Numbered from the stretch's first letter, positions 7,085 to 43,419 are shown. The stretch: DNA of 64,000 bases from a bacterium (GCA_037200965.1 JBBCGK010000001.1:128001-192000); one strand, 5' to 3'. The notes: generated by a model not told the origin, from the sequence alone. Numbers and translations: made by a program.

Positions 7085-8163
7085 AAGTCCTTCATCTCAT
7101 AGATTCGTTAACATTCGGTGGGGCCGCTAGTTTGGTGAAAGATATTTTTGAATTTCAACCCGGCAATACCAATATTTATTTATACCCACTTCGTTTAAAA
7201 GGTAATGTCGTTGATATTGTGCATCCTAACGTAATTCCTACGACTTCTAAATTCAAATACTCACTTTTCCCGTTCTTTGATCTCTATAAAATTATTCGCC
7301 AGAACAATATCGATATATTGCACTGTCACCTTTTCAGATCACAGATGTGTGGATATATATTGAAAGTCTTCTGTTTTCAGCATCTAAAACTTATTTTCCA
7401 TCGTCATGGAGCACCTAATGAATACTGGTTCGCATATGTCCTATTCTTACTCTGTAGTATCTCTCAGGTAGATTACTTTATAGCTATATCTAAAATGGCT
7501 CAAGGTTTTTTATTTGAAAGAGCTCATGTTCCTAAACGAAAGATTCAACTTCTGTATAACTTTGTTAATTTAAGTAAATTTGACGTATCCTCGGTCAACG
7601 TTTCTCAAGCACGAACCAAGCTCGCTTTAAAGAAAACTGATTTTGTAGTTGGCTTTGCGGCAAGAATAGTAGAAGCGAAAGGATGGAAAGAGTTTATAGG
7701 TAGCGCTGTCTTATTAAGGGAGGACAGAGACATTAAGTTTGTTATTGCGGGCGACGGTATTGATAGACCACAATTACTTTCTCAATTGGAGAGACAGCAG
7801 CTTGAAAAGCAGGTTATATATCTTGGGTATCAGTCAAATATGACTGACTTTTATGCTGTGTTGAACTGCTTTATAATTCCTTCTCATTTTGAAACAATGG
7901 GGCTTACAGAAATCGAAGCAATGGCGATGGAAGTGCCTGTTATAGCGTCGAATGTTCCAGGGCTGAATGAAATTATCGAGGATCGTAAAAATGGTTTGTT
8001 GTTCCCAAACAAAGACATAAAGGCACTGACTGATAAAATCCAGCTTTTACGAGACAACGCAACATTGCGGAAAGCTCTTATTGAGCAAGGAAGACGGGAT
8101 TTACAAAAATACTCCTTGCCTGAGTATTTGAAACGATTAGACAATATCTATGCCCAAATCTAA
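7081..8163 (+). CDS. GT4-family glycosyltransferase (low-GC island)
   Basis: ...ETMGLTEIEAMAMEVPVIASNVPGLNEII...; start overlaps the upstream stop by 4 nt. Confidence 0.8.
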   Translation: MKVLHLIDSLTFGGAASLVKDIFEFQPGNTNIYLYPLRLKGNVVDIVHPNVIPTTSKFKYSLFPFFDLYKIIRQNNIDILHCHLFRSQMCGYILKVFCFQHLKLIFHRHGAPNEYWFAYVLFLLCSISQVDYFIAISKMAQGFLFERAHVPKRKIQLLYNFVNLSKFDVSSVNVSQARTKLALKKTDFVVGFAARIVEAKGWKEFIGSAVLLREDRDIKFVIAGDGIDRPQLLSQLERQQLEKQVIYLGYQSNMTDFYAVLNCFIIPSHFETMGLTEIEAMAMEVPVIASNVPGLNEIIEDRKNGLLFPNKDIKALTDKIQLLRDNATLRKALIEQGRRDLQKYSLPEYLKRLDNIYAQI

Positions 8164-8986
8164 CATCTCTGCATATTTGGTTGTATATAACGAAGGCGAG
8201 AAAATAGAGGCTTGTTTGAAAAGTCTGCGTGACGTAGTTAATGAAATAATAGTCGTTCACGACGGTCCTTGTACAGATGATACGTTAATGATTTGTGCAA
8301 AGTATGAGTGTAAGATATTTACCCGAGAGCGACTCGGCAACGCAGAACCACATCGGCCTTTCGCAATTGCACAAAGCAACTATGACTGGGTTTTACAAAT
8401 AGATGCTGATGAGAGATTATCGGAAGGCCTGCGCAGTGCATTAGGAGAATTGACAAACGATCCAGAAGTTGACGCATATACTTTCAGATGGGTTACAGAT
8501 ATAAACGGTACCAAATCTAATTGGCTTGTGAAGCGTATTCTATTCAGAAAGAGTAAAATGTATGCGGTGGGATTCCCTCATATTCAGGCAGAGACAAGAG
8601 GAAGCGAAAAAGATCTTAGTCTCGAATTATTGCATGACACAAAAGAATATAACTCCCCAACTCAGCTACTAAAGAAATACCTTCGCAAAGATAAGGAGTG
8701 GGGTAGGGTAAGCGCCTCCATATTAAATGGACCACTGAGTGCTATTCCAACATATAACTGCGTATTCCCGAGTAAAGACACGAAAGAGTCAGGCCGATTG
8801 CTTCTGATAAAACATCACCCGCTGTTATCAATCCTGAGCATACCCCTCTATGGACTACTCTATGGATACATCATAAAAGGCTCTTTTACACACGGGTATG
8901 TTGGATTTGTATTGAGTTGTCACACGCCCTTGCATTCATTTTATACTTGCTTGTTTTTGTTGAAGAGAAAATTTCCATGGCTCTAG
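8150..8986 (+). CDS. GT2-family glycosyltransferase
   Basis: YLVVYNEGEKIEACLKSL...VVHDGPCTDDT...QIDADE (GT-A DxD region). Confidence 0.7.
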   Translation: MPKSNISAYLVVYNEGEKIEACLKSLRDVVNEIIVVHDGPCTDDTLMICAKYECKIFTRERLGNAEPHRPFAIAQSNYDWVLQIDADERLSEGLRSALGELTNDPEVDAYTFRWVTDINGTKSNWLVKRILFRKSKMYAVGFPHIQAETRGSEKDLSLELLHDTKEYNSPTQLLKKYLRKDKEWGRVSASILNGPLSAIPTYNCVFPSKDTKESGRLLLIKHHPLLSILSIPLYGLLYGYIIKGSFTHGYVGFVLSCHTPLHSFYTCLFLLKRKFPWL

Positions 8987-10254
8987 CAAAGTTATACCTC
9001 GAACATAAGTCGACTATCCACAATCTCGGTTGGAGGATACTTCAAATCACGAGTCAACAGGGAATGGTTCTTTTTCTGTTCATCCTATGCGCCCGTTTTC
9101 TTTCTCCGATAGAATTCGGTTTCTATAATTATACACTGGCGATAGTATTATTCTTAGTAATGTTCGGGGATTTCGGTATTTCCTCGGCAACTTCCAAATA
9201 TGTTGCTGAATATAATGTTACCAATAAAGAAAAATTGCGAGCCATACCTTTCAACGCCGGTATCACTGTTTTTGGGTTCGGATTGCTTACATCCATTATT
9301 GTTCTTATATTTGGCTCATTATACCTCGGCAATCATTTTGAGTCGGTCTTATATGTTTTACCTCTTGTTTTTCTTACCCCTCTCGTTTCGCTCTATGATG
9401 GTATATATCGCGGATTAAGACGTTTCCGCTCTTTAACTTTGATATCAGCTGTCATTGCCTGCCTTTTTGTACCACTAGCTTATTTTTTGGTAAAAACACA
9501 GGGTCTTTTAGGGGCGTTACTGGCGCAAGATGTGTTCTACTTCGTACTATTGGCAGGTCTCGTTATAGGCTATAGGGATTTTGCTTTCAAAATTAATTGG
9601 AAGGTAATTAAAATGATACTAAAGTACTCGGTTATTGTTGGAATTGGTAGTGTGGGATTCTTTTTCTTTGGAAAAATTGATACGATTTTCCTTGGTTCGT
9701 TTGGTTATATCAAAGATATCGGCTATATTGAGATCCTCAATAGGCTTTTTAGCATAGTTGGAACTCTTCCCCTTATTATAGCGAGCGTCATCGGCCCCAC
9801 AATTGCGGGAATCCATAGTCGGAAGGAACATAAACTTTTGCTAATAAAGCTAAATAAATATATTGTACTCTCTTTAATTATTGCGCTGATTGGCAGTCTG
9901 GCCTTTTTGTTCTTTGGCAAGTACGTTATTCAGTTCGCTTTTCCTCAATATTACGATCAGACAATGATAAATATTATTCCTTTATATTCTTTACTACTGT
10001 TTAGTTACTTATGTGCAAGTATAGTGCCCTCGGGCTTTGCTGTATATACGGGCCACGCGAAGATAAGCGCTTATTTTCTTATTGGTTTCGGCATCTTGCA
10101 TGTAATATTAAATTACGTTTTTCTCTCAGCTTTCGGTTTCTACGGACTTATATTCTCAATTCTACTGACCCGTATACCTTCTGACTTATTATTTATATTT
10201 TTTTATAAAACTATTCTTTCTCGAGAACAAACAGCCGAAACGGCTGCATATTAG
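8977..10254 (+). CDS. Wzx-like polysaccharide flippase / MOP-superfamily membrane protein
   Basis: ~12 predicted TM helices; SSATSKYVAEY motif typical of polysaccharide biosynthesis protein (Wzx/RfbX) family. Start chosen at the internal MALAKLY. Confidence 0.65.
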   Translation: MALAKLYLEHKSTIHNLGWRILQITSQQGMVLFLFILCARFLSPIEFGFYNYTLAIVLFLVMFGDFGISSATSKYVAEYNVTNKEKLRAIPFNAGITVFGFGLLTSIIVLIFGSLYLGNHFESVLYVLPLVFLTPLVSLYDGIYRGLRRFRSLTLISAVIACLFVPLAYFLVKTQGLLGALLAQDVFYFVLLAGLVIGYRDFAFKINWKVIKMILKYSVIVGIGSVGFFFFGKIDTIFLGSFGYIKDIGYIEILNRLFSIVGTLPLIIASVIGPTIAGIHSRKEHKLLLIKLNKYIVLSLIIALIGSLAFLFFGKYVIQFAFPQYYDQTMINIIPLYSLLLFSYLCASIVPSGFAVYTGHAKISAYFLIGFGILHVILNYVFLSAFGFYGLIFSILLTRIPSDLLFIFFYKTILSREQTAETAAY

Positions 10255-12157
10255 GCACTTCCCTAAAGCCGACAGCTGACAGCTGATTATAGGTATTCTG
10301 TGTAATGTCTGAGGGCCACGGCCTGATAAAAACAACTACGCTAAAAGGCTCATTATTCATCAAATTCTCGAGATCCTGAATATTAATATAACTTGCGTCC
10401 AAGATGAAATGTTTGCCCGACTTTGCGTTAAAAACATTACCCAGCACATTTTTTTTTCCATAATTTCCAGCGTTTTCATTATAAAAGAAAATCTCTTCGT
10501 CGTACAAAATATATTTAATTGGCAATCCGTAATCGCCAATTTGAACCCCCATGTAATTTGGAATTACGATTGTGTCCTTAGGTAGAGCATTTTTAATAAA
10601 ATTTGCTGGTTGCGAGAAATCTAAAGTTTTAGACCACATAACGTCTTGAGCGTTCAATATTCCTACCGAAAAAAGAGAGGTGGCAATAATTGTTCCAAAA
10701 GCAATTCGCTGCCCTAACGAAAGACCTTTAAAGAATTCAGTAACACTTAGTGCAATTGCCAAAGCCCAGATAGGAGATGTAATAAAAAAGTACCGATACC
10801 CAGCAGGTGTACCTGCTAGCATAATAGGAATGTAAGACACCACAAGCCATATTATGAGATAGATCAGTTTATTCTTAAGAAACTTATCTCTTGCATATAA
10901 CAGCATCGCTATAATACCTGATAATGCAATCGTATTTACTAAAATGGTTGCTATATTACCCCATGAATAAGAATACGGATAAAAAACACTTTCTCTATAA
11001 CTTGCCCACGGAGGAAGACCGCCGATTAAACCATGATAGTAGAAAGCGATGGCGTCAGCAGGATTGCCCTTATAAGCCAGTAGAGCGCACACAGGTAAGC
11101 CTAAAGAAATAAAGAAAAATACCTGATAAAACTCCCGCTTTCTATTTAAAATAACCCACAGAAAAGAAGTGAGGTAAGCCGTAAAAACAAACCAGATATT
11201 AGTGAGATTATTATCTAATAAGATAGCAAGCGCTACGGCAGATAGAATATATTTAAGTATCCTTTGCTGAATACAAACGATCAAAAATAAGAATAGATAA
11301 AATAATGCTACGCTAAAAATATATCCACGAACCTCGTTTTCCAATGTAAGTAGAAAGTAAGAAGTAGAGTAAATTAATAGTGCTAACAAGGCAGTCCTTG
11401 AATTTGTATACTTCTTTGCTAAAGAAAATAAAGGGTATAGTGCGCCAAGGTAAAATAAAAGATTTAAGAATCGACCAGCGTGCAAATAATTATGAGTTAA
11501 TACATTTGCTATATGTAGAAAAAAGAAATAAATAAATCCGGATGATATAGGATTCTCTGATGGAAAATAAGGAAACGAACTAGTGCCATAAATGCTTGCG
11601 GTTTTAATCGATATCCATTCATCTAACCAAAAGGAATGAATAAAAGGCCATTGATAGACAACCATTCCTAAATTTATTACAAATATCGAAACAATAAGAA
11701 CAATATATATAGGACTGTTATCCACTTTATCAATCACATGAGGATCTATTTTTATTTTATGCAAGAAAGACCTTTGGTATACAAGAATACCTGCACAAAT
11801 GCCAATAAGAACTGCGTAATATGCTGAGTCTGGATTAGTTGTCTCAACAAAGCTAAATAATTTATTTAAATCTAAGAGAAGCAGAAAAGTTAAGCAGCTC
11901 CATAATGAGGTAATAGCTACAATAAAAACATATTTATCTAAGACTTTAGAGGTAAAACTACGATACCAATTAAGAAAAGCTGCGTAACTAGATACTATCC
12001 CACATGTTAATAGAAATGTTTTAGGAATAAACCAAGTAAAATCGAGTCCGAAACACGCAATGCAGAACAGTACTATTGAAATAGTAAGAAGAAAAGGCGT
12101 GAGAAAGCGAGTCTCAAGTACTTTAAGTAACCTGAATATTTTGCTTCTACTGAACAT
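10211..12157 (-). CDS. GT-C-type polytopic membrane glycosyltransferase-like protein (ArnT/PMT-like) with C-terminal soluble domain
   Basis: ~450-aa multi-TM N-terminal region plus ~180-aa C-terminal domain; architecture of GT39/GT83 enzymes. No precise family call is possible from sequence alone. Confidence 0.5.
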   Translation of the reverse strand: MFSRSKIFRLLKVLETRFLTPFLLTISIVLFCIACFGLDFTWFIPKTFLLTCGIVSSYAAFLNWYRSFTSKVLDKYVFIVAITSLWSCLTFLLLLDLNKLFSFVETTNPDSAYYAVLIGICAGILVYQRSFLHKIKIDPHVIDKVDNSPIYIVLIVSIFVINLGMVVYQWPFIHSFWLDEWISIKTASIYGTSSFPYFPSENPISSGFIYFFFLHIANVLTHNYLHAGRFLNLLFYLGALYPLFSLAKKYTNSRTALLALLIYSTSYFLLTLENEVRGYIFSVALFYLFLFLIVCIQQRILKYILSAVALAILLDNNLTNIWFVFTAYLTSFLWVILNRKREFYQVFFFISLGLPVCALLAYKGNPADAIAFYYHGLIGGLPPWASYRESVFYPYSYSWGNIATILVNTIALSGIIAMLLYARDKFLKNKLIYLIIWLVVSYIPIMLAGTPAGYRYFFITSPIWALAIALSVTEFFKGLSLGQRIAFGTIIATSLFSVGILNAQDVMWSKTLDFSQPANFIKNALPKDTIVIPNYMGVQIGDYGLPIKYILYDEEIFFYNENAGNYGKKNVLGNVFNAKSGKHFILDASYINIQDLENLMNNEPFSVVVFIRPWPSDITQNTYNQLSAVGFREVPNMQPFRLFVLEKE

Positions 12158-22589: not shown

Positions 22590-22900
22590 TCCGCGGTAGC
22601 TCAATGGTAGAGCAGCTCCCTGTGGCAAACGCAGCTTCCAAAGGAAACTTTGGTCGAAGAACGAGGTGAATTCGGGGAACCCCGAGCGAGAAATCGCGGG
22701 CAATCCCGAGCCAAGTCCCGAATGTCGGGAAAGGTGTAGAGACTATCTCGCAAGAGAGTACTTGGAAAGACGGATTAATCTTTGTCTTTCCCGGGAAGCG
22801 CCTCGCACCCTTCGGGGTGATGATATAGTCCATCCCTGCCAGTAATGGAAGGAGCGATGTAAGGAGTTGGTTCCAGGTTCGAGTCCTGGCCGCGGAGCCA
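22590..22900 (+). tRNA. tRNA-Asn(GUU) interrupted by a group I intron
   Basis: Exon 1 (22590-22623): acceptor TCCGCGG, D-arm GCTC-AATGGTA-GAGC, anticodon stem GCTCC plus CUGU. Exon 2 (22860-22900): UAA-GGAGT, variable TGGTT, T-arm CCAGG-TTCGAGT-CCTGG, acceptor CCGCGGA, discriminator G, CCA. Spliced anticodon loop CUGUUAA gives anticodon GUU. Confidence 0.75.
22624..22859 (+). ncRNA. group I intron (~236 nt) in the tRNA anticodon loop
   Basis: 5' exon ends in U; intron ends in G. An IGS-like GCAG (22631-22634) can pair with exon CUGU, including a U-G wobble. Conserved core R-like GTAGAGACTA (~22735-22745) and S-like GATATAGTCC (~22822-22831). Confidence 0.7.
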
Positions 22901-24502
22901 GATAGGATTAACATCAGCGAAAGCTGGTGTTTTTCCTTTATTGACGGGCTTTTTTGGCGGTTCGAAAGTTCTTTTTTCGTCTGTTTTTTCTCCCATCATC
23001 TGCATGACACGGTCGGAGATGATTTTGAAGGCTTTATGGTATGAAATCTCCACTTTCTTGCCGTTTATCGTCGAGTTCGAAAATAACAGCGACATCAAAA
23101 GCTTCTTGTCGTCGACCATCTCGAGCGTGCTCCGGTTTACGTAAATCTTCCGCGCCTCCTTGGCCATCTGCAAGAAAGTCGATCCCATGTCGAAGTACTT
23201 GAGATTAGCGTTCTTGTGCTTATTGAGGCTATCCATCACTTCTTCCTGCTCGAGCTTGTACTGCGCGTACTTTTTCTGATAGAAGTCCTCGCTTATTTTG
23301 CCGTCGATCTTATCGTCATATATTTTGTCGAGCCGTTGCGTCGCCGTCTGATATCGTCGCTCCAGCTCGCCGGTTGCCTTTTCCCTGAATTCTATTTCCT
23401 CGCTATGGCTTTCCTTGAGTGCTTCCTGAACCCAGGTGAGCATATGCTCGATGGCCTCGTCATGCTTCGAGCTTAACTGCTCGATATTTTCCATCACTTG
23501 CTCGTCGACCTGCTCCTGCCGGACATATTCTTTCTGCGTGCAGTTTTTATAGTGATTGCAGTGGCCATACCAATGGCCTTTCTGTATCTCCCACGTTACG
23601 CGGCCCTTGCACTCCTCGCACCGAAACACGTTTTTGAAAAGCGAGTTGTGCTTGTTGTATCTCGGCGTGCCGTTGCTGTGCATGATGTCTTGGCACCGCA
23701 TGAATAATTCTTTGGTGATAAGCGGCTCATGTCCGCCCTGGGCGACTTTGCCGTTCCAGCGGTTCATGCCGTAGTAGAACGGATCGCCAAGAAGCTGATG
23801 CACGCGCGAGTGACTTACCTTGTTGCCTCCGCGCGAGCGCATGCCGAGCTTGTACATCTCATCGGCCAGTTTCTTGGTCGAGTGTATATTCGTGGCATAG
23901 AGTTCGAACATTCTTTTGACGATCGGTGCCTTATCCGGATCGAGCACGTGGATTTTGTGTCCCTTCTCGCCGACGGTTTTGTAGCCGAGCGGCGGCTTGC
24001 TCGGCAGCCAGCCTTGCGCGAGCTTTTCTTTCTGGCCTTTCTTCACGTTCTCGGAAAGGAGTCGGATGTAGTACTCGGCCGTGGCTACTTTGACGCGCCA
24101 CATAAACCACTCGTGCGACTTGGAGTCCTTGTGGAGCGTACAGCTCTCTTTGACGAGGTGGATGGTGTGCTTTTCATCGGCCAGTATCCACTCGTCGATG
24201 ACCGGCACGTCGGCAAAGTTGCGCGTGAGGCGGTCGGTCGTCTCGACGAAGATCGTGTTGATCTTCGTCTTGGTCACGTATTCGAGCATCTCGTGGAATA
24301 TCTTGCGCTGGATTTTGCCAGCCGCCGATTCCTGGATGGCGAATACCTTGACCATCTCGTAGCCGTTGCGATCGGCATAGTCGTGCAAGAGCTTTTCCTG
24401 CGCCGGAAGCGAGTAACCGGTATCCTCCTGATCCTTGGATGACACGCGGGCGTACCCCACGGCTCGCAATGGTTGATTTTCTTGATTCATTGTCATGGTC
24501 AT
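22775..24502 (-). CDS. large serine recombinase (phage/ICE-type integrase)
   Basis: AVGYARVSSKDQ catalytic Ser region, recombinase domain, Cys-rich zinc-ribbon (CEECKG...CNHYKNC), coiled-coil C-terminus. Track ORF starts at a GTG (24550); an ATG at 24502 is the more likely start. The 3' ~126 nt run antisense through tRNA exon 2 and the intron 3' end. Confidence 0.85.
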   Translation of the reverse strand: MTMTMNQENQPLRAVGYARVSSKDQEDTGYSLPAQEKLLHDYADRNGYEMVKVFAIQESAAGKIQRKIFHEMLEYVTKTKINTIFVETTDRLTRNFADVPVIDEWILADEKHTIHLVKESCTLHKDSKSHEWFMWRVKVATAEYYIRLLSENVKKGQKEKLAQGWLPSKPPLGYKTVGEKGHKIHVLDPDKAPIVKRMFELYATNIHSTKKLADEMYKLGMRSRGGNKVSHSRVHQLLGDPFYYGMNRWNGKVAQGGHEPLITKELFMRCQDIMHSNGTPRYNKHNSLFKNVFRCEECKGRVTWEIQKGHWYGHCNHYKNCTQKEYVRQEQVDEQVMENIEQLSSKHDEAIEHMLTWVQEALKESHSEEIEFREKATGELERRYQTATQRLDKIYDDKIDGKISEDFYQKKYAQYKLEQEEVMDSLNKHKNANLKYFDMGSTFLQMAKEARKIYVNRSTLEMVDDKKLLMSLLFSNSTINGKKVEISYHKAFKIISDRVMQMMGEKTDEKRTFEPPKKPVNKGKTPAFADVNPIWLRGQDSNLEPTPYIAPSITGRDGLYHHPEGCEALPGKDKD

Positions 24503-24546
24503 AATTGCTAATAATTTGTTGGTTCGAATTCGACGTTCGGTACCAG

Positions 24547-24596
24547 ACACACCATATGCCTATTCGTTTGCGCTGCTAAGCCCGAGTTACCCACAT
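24547..24596. repeat. copy A of an imperfect ~50-60-nt repeat (TATGCCTATTCG...AAGCC...GTTACCCACAT)
   Basis: Shares blocks CCTATGCCTATTCG and GTTACCCACAT with 35475..35534; same orientation; immediately upstream of the intact recombinase gene. Confidence 0.5.
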
Positions 24597-26534: not shown

Positions 26535-26636
26535 CTTTAAGCCGTATTGCTTATTCTGGATAAGCTACTTGTGCTTAAGCTTAGTATATCATATAATGCA
26601 CTGGAAGTTAGCTTTAAACTAACTATAGGTAAGTAT

Positions 26637-27254
26637 ATGGATAATAAACCGACAAAAGGTCAATATGTAGAGGTCTTATTGAGATCTCCCAAAACCGTCT
26701 TTTCAATCAAAGACGTGGCTTTGTTATGGGGAGAAGAAGCTGAAAATGCTGTTCGCGTCAGATTAAACAGCTACGTAAAAAGCGGTAAGTTGATCCGAGT
26801 ACATCGCGGCTTTTATGCTAAAGACAAGAATTACAACCGTTCTGAATTAGCGACTGCGATCTACACTCCCTCTTACATCAGCTTTGAGTCTGTTTTAACT
26901 CGTGCCGGTATCAACTTTCAATACTACGGCAATATTTTTGTTGCTTCATACGTGACCAGAGAGATCGAAGCTGATGGTCAAAAAATCTCTTTCATCCGCA
27001 TGAAAGATTATGTCTTAAGTAACACTGCCGGCATCGAGCATACGGAAGGTATTGCCACAGCAACTAAGGAGCGCGCTTTCTTGGACCGGATTTATGTCAG
27101 CAAAGACTATCATTTCGATAATTTGGATGCTTTGGATTGGGATAAAGTCTTTGAGATGTTACCTATCTACCACAACAAGCGAATGGAAAAGAAAGTAAAG
27201 ACCTATCTCGAGCACTATAAAAGCAACCAGCCCGATAAAGCGAAAAACGTATGA
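26637..27254 (+). CDS. AbiEi-family antitoxin/transcriptional regulator
   Basis: N-terminal wHTH and ...SGKLIRVHRGFYA... typical of AbiEi; stop overlaps the AbiEii start. Confidence 0.6.
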   Translation: MDNKPTKGQYVEVLLRSPKTVFSIKDVALLWGEEAENAVRVRLNSYVKSGKLIRVHRGFYAKDKNYNRSELATAIYTPSYISFESVLTRAGINFQYYGNIFVASYVTREIEADGQKISFIRMKDYVLSNTAGIEHTEGIATATKERAFLDRIYVSKDYHFDNLDALDWDKVFEMLPIYHNKRMEKKVKTYLEHYKSNQPDKAKNV

Positions 27255-28285
27255 CTTTAGATTACTCAAAGCACAAAGCAATATTGCTCCAAATTCTCAA
27301 GGATATTTATTCCGATACTTCGATCGCTCCTCACTTGGGTTTCAAAGGCGGGACGGCCGCGCTTTTATTCTACGGACTCAATCGTAACTCGGTAGACTTG
27401 GACTTCGATCTGTTGGACGAAAGCAAAGAGGCAGAGGTCTTTGAGAAGATTCAGAAAATCACTGCGGCCTATGGAACGATTACCGATTCCTACATTAAAA
27501 AGTTCAATCTCCTGAATGTTATCTCTTACGCACCTGGAGCACAGAAGATAAAAGTCGAAATCAATCGCCGGAACTTTGGCTCGCGCTATGAGCTTAAGAC
27601 CTTGCTTGGTATCTCCATGCTGGTCATGGTGGAAGCTGATACATACGCCCACAAATTGATGGCCATGTACGAGCGCGTCGGTAAGACGAGCCGTGATATT
27701 TTCGACGTGTACTATTTCGAAAAGAAAGGCTGGGATATCAATAAAACTATTGTTGAGGATCGTTCCGGACTGTCATTCAAGGACACCCTCGCCAAGTGCA
27801 TCGATTTGCTGGAAAAGATGGATAACAAGCACATCTTGGATGGCTTGGGTGAATTGCTGACAGATCCGCAAAAAGATTGGGCCCGCGCCAAGCTCAAAGA
27901 AGAGACTATTTTCTTGCTCAAAGTAAAAATGGAAGGCTTGGGCAAGATTGATACCCTGCCGCCATATACTTCGGCCGATGTTGAAGCTATACAAACCATA
28001 CTCAATGATAAGTTCTTTAAGAACACTCCTTTTGCATGCGAGAAATTGACGGTTAAAAAGGATAAAGTGTTTTTCGAAAAGAACAGCTCTGACGAGGATA
28101 GCTACGGGTACGACATTGAGTGCGTGCTTTTGCAGGATGGTAAGAAGGTAGAAGTCTCGATCGATCCGATAACAAACAAGGTCGGCGCAGATCAAGTTGC
28201 CCATCTCATAGCACATACCGTTTGGGCAAAGCTGGATCAATCGATGACCAGTCAGCTTTGGAAGAATTTTCCAACCAACCTATAA
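27251..28285 (+). CDS. AbiEii/AbiGii-family nucleotidyltransferase toxin (DUF1814)
   Basis: GFKGGTAALLFYGLNRNSVDLDFDL, the hallmark NTase motif of AbiEii. Confidence 0.7.
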   Translation: MTLDYSKHKAILLQILKDIYSDTSIAPHLGFKGGTAALLFYGLNRNSVDLDFDLLDESKEAEVFEKIQKITAAYGTITDSYIKKFNLLNVISYAPGAQKIKVEINRRNFGSRYELKTLLGISMLVMVEADTYAHKLMAMYERVGKTSRDIFDVYYFEKKGWDINKTIVEDRSGLSFKDTLAKCIDLLEKMDNKHILDGLGELLTDPQKDWARAKLKEETIFLLKVKMEGLGKIDTLPPYTSADVEAIQTILNDKFFKNTPFACEKLTVKKDKVFFEKNSSDEDSYGYDIECVLLQDGKKVEVSIDPITNKVGADQVAHLIAHTVWAKLDQSMTSQLWKNFPTNL

Positions 28286-28289
28286 ATTT

Positions 28290-29360
28290 ATGCCAAAGGA
28301 AATCGCCAAAAAGTCATTGAATAAGAACTTGCACAAGGCAAGCGCCGCGAAGAAAGATGAGTTTTATACTCAGATTGTTGATATTGAAAAAGAGTTGAAA
28401 CACTACAAAGATCAATTCCGTGGCAAGGTAGTGTATTGCAACTGCGATGATCCATTTGAGAGCAACTTCTTTAAATATTTCGCAGGAAATTTCAATGCAC
28501 TCGGACTGAAAAGACTTATTGCCACTAGTTACAAGCCGTCTCCTATAGCCAATACGCAATTAGGGCTATTTGGCGACATCAAGGCCATAAACACGCCCAA
28601 GGGCCGTCCTAAGGTAACCGCGAACAAATTCATTATCAATGAAGTTGATGATATAGACGGCGATGGCGCATTTGACTTGCGTGATATTGCCGAGCAACTC
28701 AAGGCTAACAAAAACAATGAATGGGCTCCATTAGAGGGTGAAGGAGATTTTAGAAGTGAAGAAAGCATAGAACTGCTGAAGCAAGCTGATATTGTAGTAA
28801 CAAATCCGCCTTTTTCCTTGTTCCGCGAGTATGTCGCACAGCTAGTAGAACACAACAAAAAGTTTTTGATTCTAGGTGACCAAAATGCAGTAACCTATAA
28901 AGAAACCTTTGGCTTCATCAAAGAAAATAAACTATGGCATGGCTACGACAATGGTGGCACAAAATGGTTTCAGGTTCCTGACGATTATGACATTGAGACT
29001 GAATCAAGAATAAAAGTTGAGAATGGTATAAAGTTTTTCAGCATGGGTAGAATTGTGTGGTATACAAACCTCGAGACCACAAAACGTCACGAGAAAATAG
29101 TCTTGTATAAGAAATATACACCAGAGGAATTCCCTAAATATGATAATTCCGATGTTATAAACATCGATAAAGTCTCCGATATTCCGATGGATTATGACGG
29201 AGTGATGGGTGTACCAATTACTTTTGTTGATAAATATAGTCCAGCACAGTTTGAAATTTTGGGTATCGCTAATTCCGCAAGATGGATTGGTTACGAATGT
29301 TTTACCTTGATTAAAGGTAGGAAAATATATAATCGAATTTTAATTAAGCGTAAAAAATAA
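28290..29360 (+). CDS. putative N6-adenine DNA methyltransferase
   Basis: NPPF (VVTNPPFSLF) motif IV and upstream DEFYTQ; 5 nt after AbiEii and 1 nt before the next gene. Confidence 0.55.
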   Translation: MPKEIAKKSLNKNLHKASAAKKDEFYTQIVDIEKELKHYKDQFRGKVVYCNCDDPFESNFFKYFAGNFNALGLKRLIATSYKPSPIANTQLGLFGDIKAINTPKGRPKVTANKFIINEVDDIDGDGAFDLRDIAEQLKANKNNEWAPLEGEGDFRSEESIELLKQADIVVTNPPFSLFREYVAQLVEHNKKFLILGDQNAVTYKETFGFIKENKLWHGYDNGGTKWFQVPDDYDIETESRIKVENGIKFFSMGRIVWYTNLETTKRHEKIVLYKKYTPEEFPKYDNSDVINIDKVSDIPMDYDGVMGVPITFVDKYSPAQFEILGIANSARWIGYECFTLIKGRKIYNRILIKRKK

Positions 29361-29361
29361 T

Positions 29362-30465
29362 ATGAAAATTGATCTAAACAAAATTACTGTGCGGGAAGTC
29401 GTGAATGGCTACAAAGATGGCTCTGAGGAGGGCGTTGTTGCGTATGGTGGAAAGCTTGATGTGCGCCCGAAGTATCAGCGCGAATTCGTATACAAAGACA
29501 AACAGCGCGATGCGGTTATTGATACCGTTAGAAAAGGCTTCCCTCTCAACGTGATGTATTGGGTGAAAACCGATGACGGAAATTTTGAAGTACTTGACGG
29601 ACAGCAGAGGACAATCAGTCTAGGCCAGTATGTAAATGGCGACTTCTCGGTGGATTTCAATGGTCGCCTCGCTATGTTCCATAACCTTACCAAAGAGGAG
29701 CAGGAACAAATTCTGAACTACGAATTGATGATTTATTTCTGCGAGGGAAACGATAAAGAGAAACTTGATTGGTTTAAGACAATCAATATTGCCGGAGAGC
29801 GTTTAACCGACCAAGAGCTACGCAACGCTGTATATACCGGCCCGTGGCTTTCTGATGCAAAGCTAAAATTCAGCAAATCAAACTGTGCGGCGTATTTGTT
29901 GGCAAACGATGGCGGACAGTTAATTAGCGGCTCGCCGATCCGGCAAGAGTATTTGGAAACCGCACTCTCGTGGATAAATAACGATGAAGTGGCCAATTAC
30001 ATGGCCAAACATCAACACGACGAGAATGCAGAGGAATTGTGGGCTTACTTCCAAAGCGTTATTGCATGGGTACGAAAGACGTTCCCAAATTACCGCAAGG
30101 AAATGACGAGTGTGAATTGGGGTGAGCTATACAACGAATTCAAAGACAAGAAATTGAATGAGACTAAGCTCGAAGCCGAAGTTAAGAAGTTGATGCAAGA
30201 CGAGGACGTGACGAAAAAGTCCGGTATCTACCCTTATGTCTTAACGGGACAGGAGCGAGAGCTTTCTATCCGCGCTTTTACCGACAAGATGAAGCGTGAA
30301 GCATACGAGCGGCAAGATGGCATCTGCCCGTTTTGCAAGAAAAAATATGACATCTCAGAAATGGAGGCCGATCATATTGCTCCATGGCATGAAGGTGGAA
30401 AGACTACGGCCGAAAATTGTCAGATGCTCTGCAAACAAGACAACCGGACGAAGTCTGGAAAATAA
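29362..30465 (+). CDS. DUF262 (ParB-like DGQQR NTPase/nuclease) plus C-terminal HNH endonuclease protein (GmrSD-like)
   Basis: DGQQR motif (LDGQQRT) and HNH motif DHIAPWHEGGKTTAENCQMLCKQDN. Confidence 0.75.
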   Translation: MKIDLNKITVREVVNGYKDGSEEGVVAYGGKLDVRPKYQREFVYKDKQRDAVIDTVRKGFPLNVMYWVKTDDGNFEVLDGQQRTISLGQYVNGDFSVDFNGRLAMFHNLTKEEQEQILNYELMIYFCEGNDKEKLDWFKTINIAGERLTDQELRNAVYTGPWLSDAKLKFSKSNCAAYLLANDGGQLISGSPIRQEYLETALSWINNDEVANYMAKHQHDENAEELWAYFQSVIAWVRKTFPNYRKEMTSVNWGELYNEFKDKKLNETKLEAEVKKLMQDEDVTKKSGIYPYVLTGQERELSIRAFTDKMKREAYERQDGICPFCKKKYDISEMEADHIAPWHEGGKTTAENCQMLCKQDNRTKSGK

Positions 30466-38028: not shown

Positions 38029-38405
38029 TCAAAATTAATAGCCTTATGGTACTCCTTTTCAGGCTTTTTAGCTTGTGTGAGTGTTATGACGTGCAAAGGC
38101 CTCGTTTCTTGCTGGAGTATAATGAAAGCCTACAGCGACGCGAATTCCCATCAGCTTCGGCTGATGGGAATTTTCGTATAAAAATCACTTTACAAATTCA
38201 AAGGGCGACTCCCGACGTAGCACCTTTACGGCAGCCTCCATCTCGTAGGACTTGTAGCCACTTAAAATAACGGTTCTAAGTTCTCGCACCGCTCGGAGCA
38301 AAGCTGGGCGGACCGACACGAAAGTGTCGGTTTCGTCTTTATTTGCCTAATTCTTTATTTATGATATAGTCCACTCGGCAACTTGAACACGGAAGGAATA
38401 CGGCC

Positions 38406-38771
38406 ATGCCGGTCGGATCTGTCAGACACAAACACGGTCGTGGGCTTGGCGAGCTTGCGGCGAAACTCACCGAGGCGCTGCCTGGCATCGTCGCGCCTGC
38501 GCTCAGCATCGAGGGGCGCGAAATCCACGATGGAAAGGTCACGCCTGACGAAATCATCATCCGGTGCGAAGAAGGAACTGGGGCCGACGCGAACGCGAAA
38601 GACCTCGAAATCATGATCTTCGCGCACGACTTCCCGGAACGCTCCGCGAACCTCGAAGACCGCAAGAAGATCGTCCTCGAAGGTGTCCTTGCGTTCCTCG
38701 CCGACTGGGACCGCAACGTCACGGGCTTCGTGTGGGTCATCCTTGCGCCGACCGCGTTCGGCAGCTTTTAA
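38406..38771 (+). CDS. hypothetical protein
   Basis: 121-aa ORF with typical high-GC codon usage. Confidence 0.4.
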   Translation: MPVGSVRHKHGRGLGELAAKLTEALPGIVAPALSIEGREIHDGKVTPDEIIIRCEEGTGADANAKDLEIMIFAHDFPERSANLEDRKKIVLEGVLAFLADWDRNVTGFVWVILAPTAFGSF

Positions 38772-38837
38772 TTCAATGGGCTTGTGCGAACAGAAGGGCC
38801 GCCGGAGCGATTCGGCGGCCTTTTGTTATACTTTGAA

Positions 38838-39315
38838 TATGACCGACACCGACTTCATTAAGCTCGCGATTGAGGAGGCCAGGAAATCACAGGCTGCGGC
38901 CGGCGCTCCAATCGGGGCTGTCATGGTGAAGGACGGGGAAGTGATCGCGACAGGTTGGAGCTTGGTGTGGCCCAAGAAAGACCCTTCCGCACACGGAGAA
39001 ACCGCTTGTATTCGTGCTGCCTGTGACAAGCTCCAGTCGCTCGATCTCTCCGGCTGTACACTCTATTCAACCCTTGAATCCTGTTCCATGTGCCTCGGCT
39101 GTGCTAGTTGGGCCGGAGTTTCGCGTGTCGTTTTCGGTGCGTACAAAGAAGACATACCGGAGAATCCATACGAACTCACTGACTATCATGCCGAGGAACA
39201 TGCCAAGCGGCTTACTGCTCCGGCAGGACAGAAGGTCGGGGTCATCGGCGGCGTTTTACGCGAGGAGTGCGCGGCACTCATGGCGAAAGTGAAGAATTGG
39301 ACTCCAATGGAATAA
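38838..39315 (+). CDS. CMP/dCMP-type zinc deaminase (TadA/guanine-deaminase-like)
   Basis: HGETACIRAA (H-A/C-E) and SCSMCLGC (PCxxC-type) zinc-binding motifs. Confidence 0.75.
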
Positions 39316-39329
39316 GCTACAGTTCCTGT

Positions 39330-39647
39330 ATGCAAAACTGCATCATCATCCACGGCTGCCCCTCGAACGTCGAGAAGGCGATGAATCCCGAGACTCGGAC
39401 GCATGATAAGCATTGGATTCCATGGGTTAAGAACACGCTTACAAAATTCGGAATTCCGACCGAGGCTCCGCTCATGCCCGAACCGTGGGAGCCGTCATAC
39501 GAGAAATTCAAGGCAGAGTTGCGCCCGCTCCACTACCCTCTAATCGCGAGCCGCCTCTGCGGCAAGATGCCCAGCGAGCGTAGTGATGAAGGTCTTGAGA
39601 CTGGTGAGCTCGCTCATGTCCGAGTAGTCGCCGGTGTCCTTGGCTGA
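39330..39647 (+). pseudogene. truncated RBBP9/YdeN-like serine-hydrolase N-terminal fragment
   Basis: MQNCIIIHGCPS...HWIPWVKNTLTK... resembles the N-terminus of RBBP9/YdeN-family alpha/beta hydrolases. The nucleophile motif is absent or degenerate, and the frame runs into the convergent REase gene. Confidence 0.35.
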
Positions 39648-40274
39648 CTGCGGCGAGAGCATGATGCACGCCGACGTGTAAAGCTGTTCCTGCACGAGCT
39701 TTTTGCAGAGGATGTTGTAGCGATCGGCATAGGATGCGCCTTTGAATTCCGGAAGCAATGGGAAGTGCGGCGAATTATCCGTCACTGGCGAGCGCGAGCC
39801 CGGCGCGTCTTCGAGGAGCATGAGCCAGCCGACGAATGGCTTCGGTTGTTCCCCGAACGCTCCTTCCCGGTACGCGGTCCACAGGTCGTGCGCGGTCCCG
39901 ATTGCTTCTTCTATGCGATTATTGAAATTATTGCCGAACGAGCCGACCTGCGACTTGAATTCGAGCGCGGCGACGAGACGGCCTTCGCTGAGTATGAGGA
40001 AATCCCATTGCTTAGTTGGTCTGAAGAAGCCCGGTAGGGTGACGAGACGCCCGCTATGAATGACCGTCGCATCTGTAAGGCCATTTGCTTCGGCAAGATC
40101 TGCCATCAGCGTGGCGAAGCCATCCATGTTCTTACCCGCAGTGACTGCGCCGCGGGTTCCTTGGTCTACAGTTCCGGATTCCTCCTGTTGCCGGACCGCA
40201 ACACTGCGATTGCCCCAGAACAGTTCGACTGCCTGTTTAGCACGCTTCTCGTATTGCGCGAGGTCTATGGCCAT
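39540..40274 (-). CDS. type II restriction endonuclease, PD-(D/E)xK fold (possibly XhoI/PaeR7I-like)
   Basis: [20 protein letters not shown] gives D...E-x-K. Sits 5 nt downstream of a gamma-class N6A MTase in the same orientation. Confidence 0.5.
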
Positions 40275-40279
40275 ACGTT

Positions 40280-41986
40280 TTATGCCTTGATGGTAGCACG
40301 CTCGGATGGAGAGAGAGAAAACAAGGCGGATACGGCTTCGTCGCGGGCTTCAGAGTCATCACTGCCCGCTGCCGCGCGAAGCGCCTGCTGCAGATCCTTG
40401 GAGACATCGCTCCACCGCGGCAACCGGATACGCCGCAGATACTGTGCCTGAAACCGGAGACAGTTCCCGTGCATGCGCGTCGAGTAGGTCTCGATGAATA
40501 CGCGCGCGATGCCAGAGAGCAAGACGGCACGGAGCGCTTGAAGATCCCATTCGTCGGAGGTGATGTAGTAAAGATTGTGATGAGGATACAGCTTGCCCTC
40601 GTCGTAGACGATATGGGCATCGCCCTTGATATCTGGGATCAGGAGTTTCGGCTTCTGCACGAGCTCCGGATAGATACGGTCGATCGTGCGGTACCAAGCG
40701 CTCGGGTTCTTCTTGGAGACGTGCCGGTTCCTGATCGCCACTTCGTGCTGTCCGAGGTATGCGCGCAGCCGGGGATACTTCTCAAGCGAGACCGGCTTCC
40801 CGTCATTCCCGAATGGATTCACGACGCCCAGTCCGCGCCATGCTACCGTACCCGTCTGAATATCCTTGGTCATTACGAGCGGAAGTTTGCACTCGGCCTC
40901 GACATCGAGCGTATCGAAGGGCGCGATGAACACATCGTCTGCCCCCGTCGCAACGCCGATACCCACCTTGCATCCCGTTTCCTCCAGCGTTGGGAAATCA
41001 CTCTCAAGGCGGCGAATGAGCGCGAGTGTGTCCGACTCCTCAAGCGTCCATGGGTCGCCGCCGGTGATGGTCGTTACTTTTACGGACTCATGGTCGGCCA
41101 ATGCGCCTCGCACGAGCGCGCGGGCCAGATCCTCTAGCGCAGATGCCTCAATCTCCGGGCGCTTCGCCACATAGGTCGGACCGGCCGACTCGCGGGCGAT
41201 TACGGTGATTGCCGGATATGCGATCACTTCCGAATGGAAGGCTGGGGTACCGACCATGTCGACGTATGTCCGCATGTGGAATCGCTTCGCGACAAGTTCG
41301 CGGAGGGGACCTCCGTAGCGATTCTTCATCCAGCGGTCAGCGCAGATAAAACCGAGCGTGCCGCCCTCATCGAGGAGCTTCAGCGAGTATTCGATAAAAG
41401 GGATAAAAATATCTGCTCGATCGTAAATCGTCTCGTACCGGCGACGGTACTCGGCCATCAGCACATTGGGTACCATCTCTTGCCTGATGTACGGCGGATT
41501 TCCGACAACATGAGTAAAGGAGTGCCCGAATGGCGTGAGCAGGAAGTCGCCTTGGACGAGCCAAGCCCCAAGGATTTCTTCGCTTTGATCGATAGTTAGT
41601 CCGTTCTGGAGGAGAATCGCTCGCACTTCCTTCCTCGTCTTATCAAATGACCCCATGTGGAGCTCCACCCCGCGGATACTGTCTCTCAAGAGATCTGCAC
41701 TGGGCTTTATGTTCCTAGTCTTGAGCGAGGACATGAGCCGCTTCACCGCTGGTATGAGGAAATCTCCATGTCCGAACGACGGTTCGAGAAGACGTGCCGC
41801 GTACAGTTCATTGGAAGGCACATAACCGACGAGGTCGAGTATAAAATCCACCACTTCCGACCGCGTGAAAATGGCCCCGCGGTCGTCGGTTCCTGCTGCT
41901 GCAAACTCCTCTATGGCAGACGCGACTGGAGAAAGGCCGGGGAGGAATTCCTGCGCGAGCTGTCCTTTTAGCGTGCCAACTCTCAT
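40280..41986 (-). CDS. N6-adenine DNA methyltransferase, gamma class (Eco57I/TaqI-like)
   Basis: Motif [13 protein letters not shown]; N-terminal AdoMet region [11 protein letters not shown]. Start placed at MRVGTLKG (ATG 41986), preceded by an AT-rich stretch. Confidence 0.8.
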
Positions 41987-42143
41987 GTGTTTAATAATAC
42001 CATTCCCGGGAGTGAGAGAGCGATTTCGAGGTATTGAACCATTACGAAGGACTTGACACAAGTATCTACTTATGATAGAGTCTGTCCTGGTAGTAGATTC
42101 CATTCCGGCATCTCCCCAGCCACGAACCTTACAGGAGGCTTCC

Positions 42144-42485
42144 ATGGCACGTTCAATCATCCTCGAGTCCGACCCCGAAGCACGCGTTGGTTTCAACGCG
42201 CAGGAAGGAGCGGGACACGAGAAGACCGAATCCCGCGTCGTCATCGACATCAGCGGTTACAAGCTGGTGCATGACACGGAAACGGAAGGAGGCCTGCATG
42301 TCGTGCAGCTCTACCTCACCGTTCCTCAAATGGCACAGCTTGTGCGGATGTTTTTCTTGGAGATTGCTAAGGAAAACATCTACGCACAGCTCCTTCGTCG
42401 GCTCCTCCGGCAACGGTGGAAGGTCATGACGAATGGTGCCGCCAAGCACATGGGTTGGATGCCGCGATACGATCAAGGCGTCTGA
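42144..42485 (+). CDS. hypothetical protein
   Basis: AGGAGG RBS 6-7 nt upstream of the ATG at 42144; followed by a canonical terminator. Confidence 0.45.
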
Positions 42486-42576: not shown

Positions 42577-43419
42577 CTAAAGCGGATCCCGTGCGCCCTG
42601 AAGTCTTTCGGAGTGTCTCGTATTTAGTGTACCCGTCCGCCCCAGCTTATCCCGGTAAATCAAGGAAACAAGCGCGAAGCTTAGTACGAGCAGCAGGAGC
42701 CACGATCCGATCTTCTCGGGCGAAACCGGATGCCAGTGTCCCACCTGATTCGGATACACCCAGATGCGCGCGAACGTCCCGATATTCTCGGCCGCCCAGA
42801 CGAAGAGCGCGGTCAGAACCGCCGTTACGAGAAACGGCATGCTGCGCCTGCGGCGATACACCTCGAAACGCACCCGCGTCTTCCGGAAAACGAGGAGTAT
42901 GTAGATAAAAAGGATGCCGCGGATGTCATAGAAGAAGTGGTGCGTGAAGAAGTTGAGGTAGATGAGCGCCGCAAGCAGCCAGATATGGCCATAGGCAGGG
43001 AAGCGCTCATAGGAAAGTTTGAGGAAGACGAACGCGCGCGAAATATAGCTTCCGACCGCCGAATACAGGAACCCGGTGAACAGCGGCACGGTCCCGAGTG
43101 CAAATACCGTTTCCGCAGCACCGGGATACGTCCACGACCCGATCGCAGGACTCGTCTTAAAGAGCTCCATGCCGGTCGCAAGGAGATGGAACACGACGAT
43201 GACGAGAAACTCCCGCGGATTCTCGAACCGGAAGACAAGCGCACACAGCTGGAATCCGAGCGCGGCGAGGAATATGAAATCGTACCTGCTGATGAGCGGC
43301 ACGGAGACCGCTTCCGTGAAAAGAAACACCGAAAGCAGGAATATGCCGAAATAGCTCGCCCGCGCGTTAGCAATAAAGAAACGCCATAACTCGATGCCGC
43401 GCCCGCGCCATGTTTCCAT
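42577..43419 (-). CDS. polytopic integral membrane protein (DUF817-like)
   Basis: ~8 TM helices; aromatic-rich. Confidence 0.45.
   Translation of the reverse strand: METWRGRGIELWRFFIANARASYFGIFLLSVFLFTEAVSVPLISRYDFIFLAALGFQLCALVFRFENPREFLVIVVFHLLATGMELFKTSPAIGSWTYPGAAETVFALGTVPLFTGFLYSAVGSYISRAFVFLKLSYERFPAYGHIWLLAALIYLNFFTHHFFYDIRGILFIYILLVFRKTRVRFEVYRRRRSMPFLVTAVLTALFVWAAENIGTFARIWVYPNQVGHWHPVSPEKIGSWLLLLVLSFALVSLIYRDKLGRTGTLNTRHSERLQGARDPL

Follow-up and report, generated by a model that had tools for sequence, protein, structure and literature searches.

Rearrangements of the Kobayashi type tie restriction-modification (R-M) systems to changes in genome structure, with R-M complexes acting as mobile units that insert with accompanying deletion or substitution. 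Two DNA methyltransferases, M.TaqI and M.BseCI, both methylate the adenine of a TCGA core, and CTCGAG contains that core. PaeR7I recognizes CTCGAG and cuts after C1, and the fifth base of the site is methylated to N6-methyladenine (m6A) (PMC3031569). Both post-segregational killing and intragenomic movement have been documented for PaeR7I (PMC3031569). On an IncP-6-type plasmid, the restriction endonuclease gene is called paeR7IR (PMC8421773).

Herein, we examine a locus that resembles these systems in a 64-kb stretch of bacterial DNA, termed the window; all positions are counted from its first nucleotide. The segment from about 39531 to 42003 is best explained as a self-contained, 2.47-kb Type IIP R-M cassette of the XhoI/PaeR7I family, with a putative methyltransferase gene (MTase, M) followed by a putative restriction endonuclease gene (REase, R) on the minus strand. 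For the locus as a whole, the best explanation joins an acquired cassette of this family to the truncation of a hydrolase gene, brought about by the arrival of the cassette or by a replacement event; we consider this account quite probable.

The restriction endonuclease and methyltransferase genes

The REase is encoded at 39540-40274 on the minus strand by a full-length, intact ORF of 244 amino acids, and it belongs to the Type IIP XhoI/PaeR7I family. The Pfam XhoI profile (PF04555) matches it at 296.8 bits (the cut-off is 25; E = 9.7e-89) over profile positions 2-190 of 191, and the PADLOC REase_II model PDLC03540 does so over positions 1-244 of 247 (E = 1.8e-106). A protein identical to it bears the NCBI name “PaeR7I family type II restriction endonuclease”. 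Homologs at E <= 1e-20 number at least 7999 in the protein collection; among the matches listed, the nearest are 94-95% identical and equal in length, and several bear the name “PaeR7I family” or “XhoI” in their source records. Because no solved structure has a sequence relation to the REase at E <= 1, a predicted structural model was used to assess its fold; the model features the PD-(D/E)xK fold along with conserved acidic and lysine residues. The initial annotation had tentatively called the system XhoI/PaeR7I-like, and the Pfam match, the NCBI name, the full-length PADLOC match, and the predicted fold all show that this was right. It had also described a 244-aa nuclease with a D-x13-EFK motif, which we locate in this ORF as D91-x13-E105-F-K107. 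D91, E105, and K107 are invariant in 26 homologs and are candidates for the catalytic residues.

The MTase, a predicted gamma-class N6-adenine DNA methyltransferase of 568 amino acids, is encoded at 40280-41986 on the minus strand with its ATG at 41986; the source assembly calls the gene in the same way. Its motif I (EPSFGHGDF) comprises residues 68-76 (FGHG, 71-74), GNPPY is found at residues 162-166 (NPPY, 163-166), and a TaqI-like target-recognition domain (TRD) occupies residues ~422-520 of the 568. Motif I is therefore followed by motif IV (NPPY) and then by a C-terminal TRD, the order of the gamma class, and this arrangement bears out the earlier identification of a gamma N6A-MTase from GNPPY. 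Pfam matches are to PF07669 (Eco57I; 73.3 bits, E = 3e-20), PF12950 (TaqI_C; E = 2e-6), and PF02384 (E = 1.7e-4), and the PADLOC MTase_II model PDLC03313 matches end to end (E = 2.5e-236). Relatives in the Protein Data Bank are M.BseCI, CamA, and M.TaqI; M.BseCI is nearest in the TRD region and M.TaqI in the catalytic domain.

The MTase stop codon is followed after only 5 nt (40275-40279, minus strand) by the REase start codon, an operon arrangement; the measurement agrees with the spacing and the co-directional orientation that had been noted at the outset. M is upstream of R on one strand at every sister locus examined, where the two genes are separated by 6 nt, overlap by 1 nt, or directly adjoin (0 nt). 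Both the MTase and the REase are full length in comparison with the sister genes. The PF04555 and PF07669 matches go far beyond chance. Judged from sequence, the assignment of the two genes as an R-M pair is fully supported.

We infer that the pair is enzymatically active and specific for CTCGAG. The REase most likely works as a homodimer that cleaves C^TCGAG when the site is unmethylated; recognition of CTCGAG and cleavage after C1 are attributed to it from its family membership and from the 62-70% identity that it shares with annotated PaeR7I-family genes. The MTase, in turn, most likely forms N6-methyladenine at the fifth base of the same site (CTCGm6AG). By modifying CTCGAG, the MTase would protect the host DNA, and the REase would destroy incoming unmodified DNA. 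The pair could also act as an addictive selfish element, as shown for PaeR7I. CTCGAG is not depleted in the 64-kb window (31 sites, with 27 +/- 4.7 expected), which therefore carries no genomic footprint of this specificity; the frequency of the site neither supports nor refutes it.

Limits and mobility of the cassette

The M-R pair (565-569 aa plus 244 aa) recurs in unrelated neighborhoods. One sister cassette (L110) has a cupredoxin gene on one side and, after the REase, a FabH gene on the other; another (L111) has a gene for a 457-aa protein after the REase. In loci L112-L118, the cassette lies between PadR and another Eco57I-type methylase, with the methylase after the REase, and that of L119 adjoins IS6100 on a Pseudomonas aeruginosa plasmid. 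When the window was compared to the sister cassettes using blastn, similarity was confined to 39531-42003: the two genes, no more than 9 nt beyond the REase stop codon, and 17 nt ahead of the MTase ATG. On the REase side, the match to L111 (86% identity) reaches 39531, and those to L112-L118 reach 39537; on the MTase side, homology to L110 reaches 42003. The cassette is best explained as having been horizontally acquired.

A compositional case for foreign origin was considered and rejected. The R-M genes had been described as having lower GC content, and this proved not to be so: the values are 57.8% for the REase, 57.4% for the MTase, and 57.3% for the cassette, with a window mean of 53.8%, 56-57% in neighboring genes, 51.3% in the left 5 kb, and 55.8% in the right 5 kb. 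Further, GC3 is 0.67-0.68 in the REase and MTase and 0.67-0.73 in their neighbors p113, DUF817, and p427. Because the GC and GC3 values of the cassette are indistinguishable from those of the neighboring genes, composition gives no sign of a recent foreign origin. The DNA upstream of the MTase, which had been called AT-rich, is moderately so (46.5% GC over the 157 intergenic nucleotides at 41987-42143).

Around the cassette, we found no target-site duplications or terminal inverted repeats, only short repeats at chance level. An 11-nt pair at 39588 and 42046 was considered as a target duplication and dismissed, because one copy is within the conserved REase coding sequence.

At its MTase end, the cassette includes 17 nt upstream of the ATG (41987-42003, minus strand). 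They hold an extended -10-like element, TGGTATTAT, at 42002-41994, which is 7 nt before the ATG, and no Shine-Dalgarno sequence is present. Two sister cassettes keep the element, as TGGTATCAT in L110 and as GTGATACAAT in L112. Its position, its conservation in these two sisters, and the lack of a Shine-Dalgarno sequence suggest a leaderless transcript, and TGGTATTAT is a possible promoter for such an M-R message.

Past this end of the cassette is intergenic DNA upstream of p113 (42144-42485, plus strand), a gene divergent from the MTase whose family is rare and of unknown function and which has a promoter-like site of its own at 42053-42081. It is followed by a DUF817 gene (42577-43419, minus strand). 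Homologs of p113 number 27 among 1.84 billion representatives, all of about 110-140 aa, and they adjoin glycosyltransferase or RNase HII genes, which are housekeeping contexts, not R-M genes. A blastn comparison of the p113 region with the sister cassettes detected no DNA homology. The idea that p113 is a controller (C) protein or otherwise part of the cassette was discarded, given that it has no family or helix-turn-helix match, that it is absent beside the sister cassettes, and that its homologs are found in housekeeping contexts.

A truncated hydrolase gene at the border of the cassette

Convergent with the REase is an ORF at 39330-39647 (plus strand) that encodes 105 amino acids plus a stop codon and begins MQNCIIIHG...HWIPWVKNTLTK. 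The initial annotation correctly noted this ORF and its run into the 3′ end of the REase gene, but the length that it gave, 106 aa, should read 105 aa plus the stop codon, and the overlap of 107 nt is 108 nt when the stop codon is counted. Only codons 1-64 (39330-39521, plus strand) derive from a gene, namely that of a PF06821 (YdeN/RBBP9-type) serine hydrolase. The remainder (39522-39647, plus strand) is a read-through tail that passes, antisense, through the junction and the last 35 REase codons to the first in-frame stop. Its 41 residues, the last of the ORF, have no hydrolase-family homology, and the sequence departs from its relatives after ...KFKAEL. A hidden Markov model made from 61 full-length relatives matches the ORF over positions 2-65 of 189 only (E = 2.4e-34), and tblastn matches with the closest relatives (81-82% identity) end exactly at 39521.

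The 64 residues of this stub are 68-82% identical to a hydrolase family found widely among CPR bacteria and DPANN archaea. The family consensus continues as ...FKxEFEKxxVxExTxLxGHSCG..., and the homology in the stub runs out at residue 64, some 15 positions short of the GHSCG nucleophile of the relatives, such that the catalytic Ser, Asp, and His are all missing. The convergent ORF has no Pfam match even at E <= 10; the intact relatives match PF06821 (41.5 bits; the cut-off is 22) and carry the GHSCG nucleophile elbow. The original description of an RBBP9/YdeN-like N-terminus that lacks a clear nucleophile was right, the family match ending before GHSCG. The intact hydrolase has about 189 aa in most of the 78 complete genome loci. 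In a minority, which includes the two closest relatives of the stub, fusion to a Nudix-like domain gives a length of about 320 aa. By its sequence, then, the convergent ORF is recognizable as a gene remnant, not a functional PF06821 member.

Could the 105-aa ORF nonetheless encode a short protein with a function of its own, or serve as a dedicated antisense control on the endonuclease? The frame stays open through 105 codons, and its last 108 nt, stop codon included, overlap the 3′ end of the REase gene. Further, there is no terminator-like site on the plus strand between the upstream deaminase gene (see below) and the REase, so read-through transcription antisense to the REase is plausible. 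However, the last 41 residues are without a homolog, the catalytic residues are gone, no Shine-Dalgarno sequence precedes the ATG, and the sister cassettes have no such convergent ORF. We regard a dedicated function for this ORF as extremely improbable.

In an alignment of 11 family sequences (stub included), 22 residues are invariant; the stub retains all of them, which argues for a recent event. A single 105-aa product with the same neighbors is recorded in two NCBI assemblies (GCA_037975565.1 and GCA_015689235.1), and the junction is therefore not a one-off assembly join.

Neighborhood and host

The gene immediately preceding the stub encodes a TadA/CDA-type nucleoside deaminase (38839-39315, plus strand; PF00383, E = 1e-22). 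It is co-directional with the stub, which starts 14 nt after it. Translation probably begins at the ATG at 38839: alignments with relatives start only at residue ~20-22 of the protein as called, and a strong terminator-like hairpin (38793-38824) precedes this codon. Farther upstream is p121 (38406-38771, plus strand). Because the relatives of the flanking genes are mostly found in metagenome-assembled genomes (MAGs) of Patescibacteria/CPR and DPANN, a CPR-type host is likely. The wider region contains mobile and defense genes: a serine recombinase, AbiEi/AbiEii, an EcoRI-like methylase, GmrSD, DUF2254, DUF2726, and an rve integrase. We also observed, at 22590-22900, a tRNA-Asn gene that a group I intron interrupts; it adjoins the serine recombinase and a run of defense genes.

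The neighbors bear on the question of whether the stub is a resident remnant at all or had traveled with the cassette as hitch-hiking flanking DNA picked up in an earlier host. Other Patescibacteria/Saccharibacteria MAGs contain the sequences closest to the stub (81-82% identity), and in none of 80 loci is the deaminase beside the hydrolase; both facts are compatible with hitch-hiking. However, no hydrolase sequence follows the REase in the sister cassettes examined (L110, L111, and L112-L118). Moreover, the start codon of the stub is still in place, 14 nt past the end of the deaminase gene. Transport of the stub with the cassette is accordingly very unlikely, and below we treat the stub as resident.

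Origin of the truncation

The hydrolase homology ends at 39521 and the similarity to sister cassettes starts at 39531, some 10 nt away; the junction must therefore fall within about 10 nt, with 39522-39530 as the junction zone. The rest of the hydrolase was not found within the 64-kb window, either in a six-frame HMM search (--max, E <= 100) or by tblastn with full-length relatives, including the Nudix-fused ones. The missing portion amounts to two-thirds of the gene or, had the ancestor carried the Nudix fusion, to four-fifths. When C-terminal hydrolase sequence was used to query the database, in a search limited by its word index and to called genes, no protein was returned from the 960-kb contig JBBCBH010010897.1, on which the window lies. 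Because the distal part is absent from the window, a simple insertion that split the gene is excluded, and truncation or replacement must have occurred. The initial annotation held that the R-M cassette had inserted into the hydrolase gene. The abutment of the truncation point at 39521 and the cassette edge at 39531 agrees with that claim; the absence of the distal two-thirds across the cassette and in the window does not.

The hydrolase gene is uninterrupted in 75 of 80 relatives. In another lineage (L007), an IS630-like transposase splits the same gene, and so agents other than R-M cassettes also disrupt it; the gene is evidently dispensable. This observation is pertinent to the main rival of our account, an earlier and unrelated truncation. 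According to it, the hydrolase had already been cut short by some earlier event, such as a deletion, an IS element, or a former cargo gene, and the cassette later replaced or joined that DNA, making the adjacency something other than the disrupting event. The location of the locus in a stretch rich in mobile and defense genes is consistent with such a history, as are the L007 transposase, the absence of the distal hydrolase part from the window, and the differing genes that relatives carry downstream of the deaminase. However, the two homologies end only ~10 nt apart, leaving no DNA of a previous occupant on that side, and the stub has not decayed at any of the 22 invariant family positions. 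We deem an earlier truncation unlikely, albeit worthy of serious consideration.

Relatives that might reveal the order of events were sought. No synteny with the neighbors in the window is shared among the 80 genome loci that carry the hydrolase family, nor among 27 metagenome deaminase loci (best, 68-78% identity), in which the downstream genes differ. Among these hydrolase- and deaminase-anchored loci, no relative with an empty site or an intact hydrolase at this position was found. A collection of 5.8 billion proteins contains no close strain; above 75% identity, the stub matches nothing in it but its own entry. With no close empty-site relative, the causal order, with the cassette as the agent of truncation, is one that we infer. 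On balance, we favor insertion with accompanying deletion or replacement as the origin of the truncation, and hold this to be fairly probable. The arrival of the cassette, or a replacement at a variable locus, would have removed everything past codon 64 of the hydrolase. A dead N-terminal stub would have been left, with a reading frame that runs on, antisense, into the 3′ end of the REase gene.

A more ambitious reading unites several of these features. The PaeR7I-family pair might spread among CPR-type bacteria as a minimal, “naked” unit of 2.47 kb with a built-in leaderless promoter in its last 17 nt, and it might integrate by illegitimate recombination that deletes host DNA. At this locus, read-through of the deaminase operon across the stub might then provide antisense RNA that dampens the REase, easing establishment. 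We offer this reading as speculation and consider it improbable.

Significance and comparison with known systems

The anatomy of the putative R-M pair departs in nothing from the known, very large, and well-characterized XhoI/PaeR7I family. We take the locus to be a routine case of a mobile defense cassette that landed in a host gene and deleted part of it. As such, it adds one more intact XhoI/PaeR7I-type system, probably from a Patescibacteria-like genome, and its import beyond annotation is small. It is nevertheless a clean example of an R-M cassette border that coincides, within ~10 nt, with a host-gene breakpoint, a coincidence in keeping with the accepted picture in which Type II R-M systems are mobile and rearrange genomes. 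The results may be of use in annotating defense loci and in predicting methylation motifs in uncultured bacteria with small genomes. The conserved -10-like element 7 nt before the MTase ATG is one detail of perhaps mild interest.

The remnant at the border compares with YdeN/RBBP9 (PF06821) proteins only through its intact relatives, which match this family and have the GHSCG elbow; the copy in the window comprises the first 64 of ~189 residues, has no catalytic residue, and is below Pfam detection. The MTase shares with M.TaqI (target TCGA) similarity in the catalytic domain, including NPPY (E = 1.6e-6), and a Pfam TaqI_C match. With M.BseCI (target ATCGAT), it shares similarity in the C-terminal TRD (E = 2e-16, query residues 311-537). 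These similarities are distant, however, and the targets are different, being shorter or differently flanked; the two enzymes are structural analogs of the MTase, not orthologs.

The closest counterparts are the PaeR7I system of a Pseudomonas aeruginosa plasmid and XhoI, its isoschizomer. As in those systems, the PF04555 domain is full length, a gamma N6A MTase with an Eco57I domain is immediately upstream in the same orientation, and the two-gene cassette is found in unrelated DNA contexts. The REase has 244 aa, compared to 246 aa for the product of the plasmid gene. Unlike the IncP-6-type plasmid version, to which the pair is only 62-63% (REase) and 58% (MTase) identical, the MTase of the window has ~20 extra N-terminal residues, and the cassette is chromosomal, set against a truncated gene in what is probably a Patescibacteria MAG. 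Finally, with respect to the R-M units of the Kobayashi type, one difference is that the cassette borders showed no IS element, long target duplication, or inverted repeat. The resemblance to them is otherwise clear: the unit is naked, two genes with hardly any DNA around them, it occurs in unrelated contexts, and it abuts a truncated resident gene.

Genomic context of the restriction-modification cassette

A tRNA-Asn(GUU) gene lies on the plus strand at 22590-22900 of the window, and its anticodon is interrupted between positions 35 and 36 by a group I intron of 236 nt (22624-22859). The intron matches Rfam model RF00028 with 64.1 bits. ARAGORN found no tRNA in the raw window, but joining exon 22590-22623 to exon 22860-22900 yields a sequence that it recognizes as tRNA-Asn(gtt), 75 nt long. 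The splice sites were deduced by hand, with a U preceding the 5' site and a G preceding the 3' site.

The 3' exon of this gene is directly adjoined by a large serine recombinase on the minus strand (22775-24550; Resolvase, Recombinase and Zn-ribbon domains), the tail of whose ORF overlaps the exon. From there a series of defense-type genes continues to about 36000. It comprises AbiEi/AbiEii (26547-28285), an EcoRI-like adenine methylase (28290-29360) with no EcoRI-type REase beside it, GmrSD+HNH (29362-30465), and DUF2254 and DUF2726 genes. Between 24 and 36 kb, the GC content falls to 45-49%. Together, the recombinase and the defense-type genes look like an island integrated at tRNA-Asn. A repeat of the tRNA-Asn 3' end, which would mark the far end of such an island, was sought within the window and not found. 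Elsewhere, a 4-kb block (8001-12000) has a GC content of only 36.8%, compared to the window average of 53.8%, and is probably another foreign segment.

On the lower-coordinate side of the PaeR7I-type cassette lies an 84-nt stretch (38216-38299) with 75% identity to DNA that, in groundwater contigs, precedes a sister R-M cassette by about 1.1 kb (L115, 414-497; L118, 148-231). In the window, this stretch is inside a small minus-strand ORF (...LLRAVRELRTVILSGYKSYEMEAAVKVLRRESPFEFVK) between genes p270 and p121, and in L115 it falls within a called gene of 55 aa. That it lies close to a PaeR7I-type cassette in each case may be coincidental. Downstream of p121, there is a strong terminator-like hairpin on the plus strand (38793-38834; 14 bp, 8 of them GC, followed by a T-run), placed between that gene and 38839, where the deaminase probably starts. 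Given a terminator-like hairpin upstream of 38839, the start in the source gene call (38776) is probably too early, making the called deaminase 21 codons too long.

Expression of the cassette and fate of the hydrolase gene

Three cassettes carry an extended -10-like element (TGGTATTAT, TGGTATCAT and GTGATACAAT) 7-8 nt before the MTase ATG: that of the window (41994-42002, minus strand) and the sister cassettes of L110 (about 1765-1773) and L112 (about 707-716). None of the three has a Shine-Dalgarno sequence before this ATG. The proximity of the element to the start codon, together with the lack of a Shine-Dalgarno sequence, suggests that the M-R mRNA of these cassettes would be leaderless. 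The version carried by the P. aeruginosa plasmid (L119) lacks the element.

Closest to the hydrolase stub that abuts the cassette are fusion proteins of about 320 aa (L003, 9980-10954; L004, 9959-10963), in which the hydrolase is followed by a C-terminal Nudix-like domain (GGEIEEGETPxxAVIRExxEEL); this longer form occurs in 8 of the 78 loci. Another relative, in a Staskawiczbacteria MAG (L007, 2370-4065), is interrupted near codon 122 by an insertion of 1.1 kb encoding an IS630/Tc1-like transposase on the strand opposite to the hydrolase gene. Both halves of the hydrolase gene are retained there, whereas in the window the distal part is gone.
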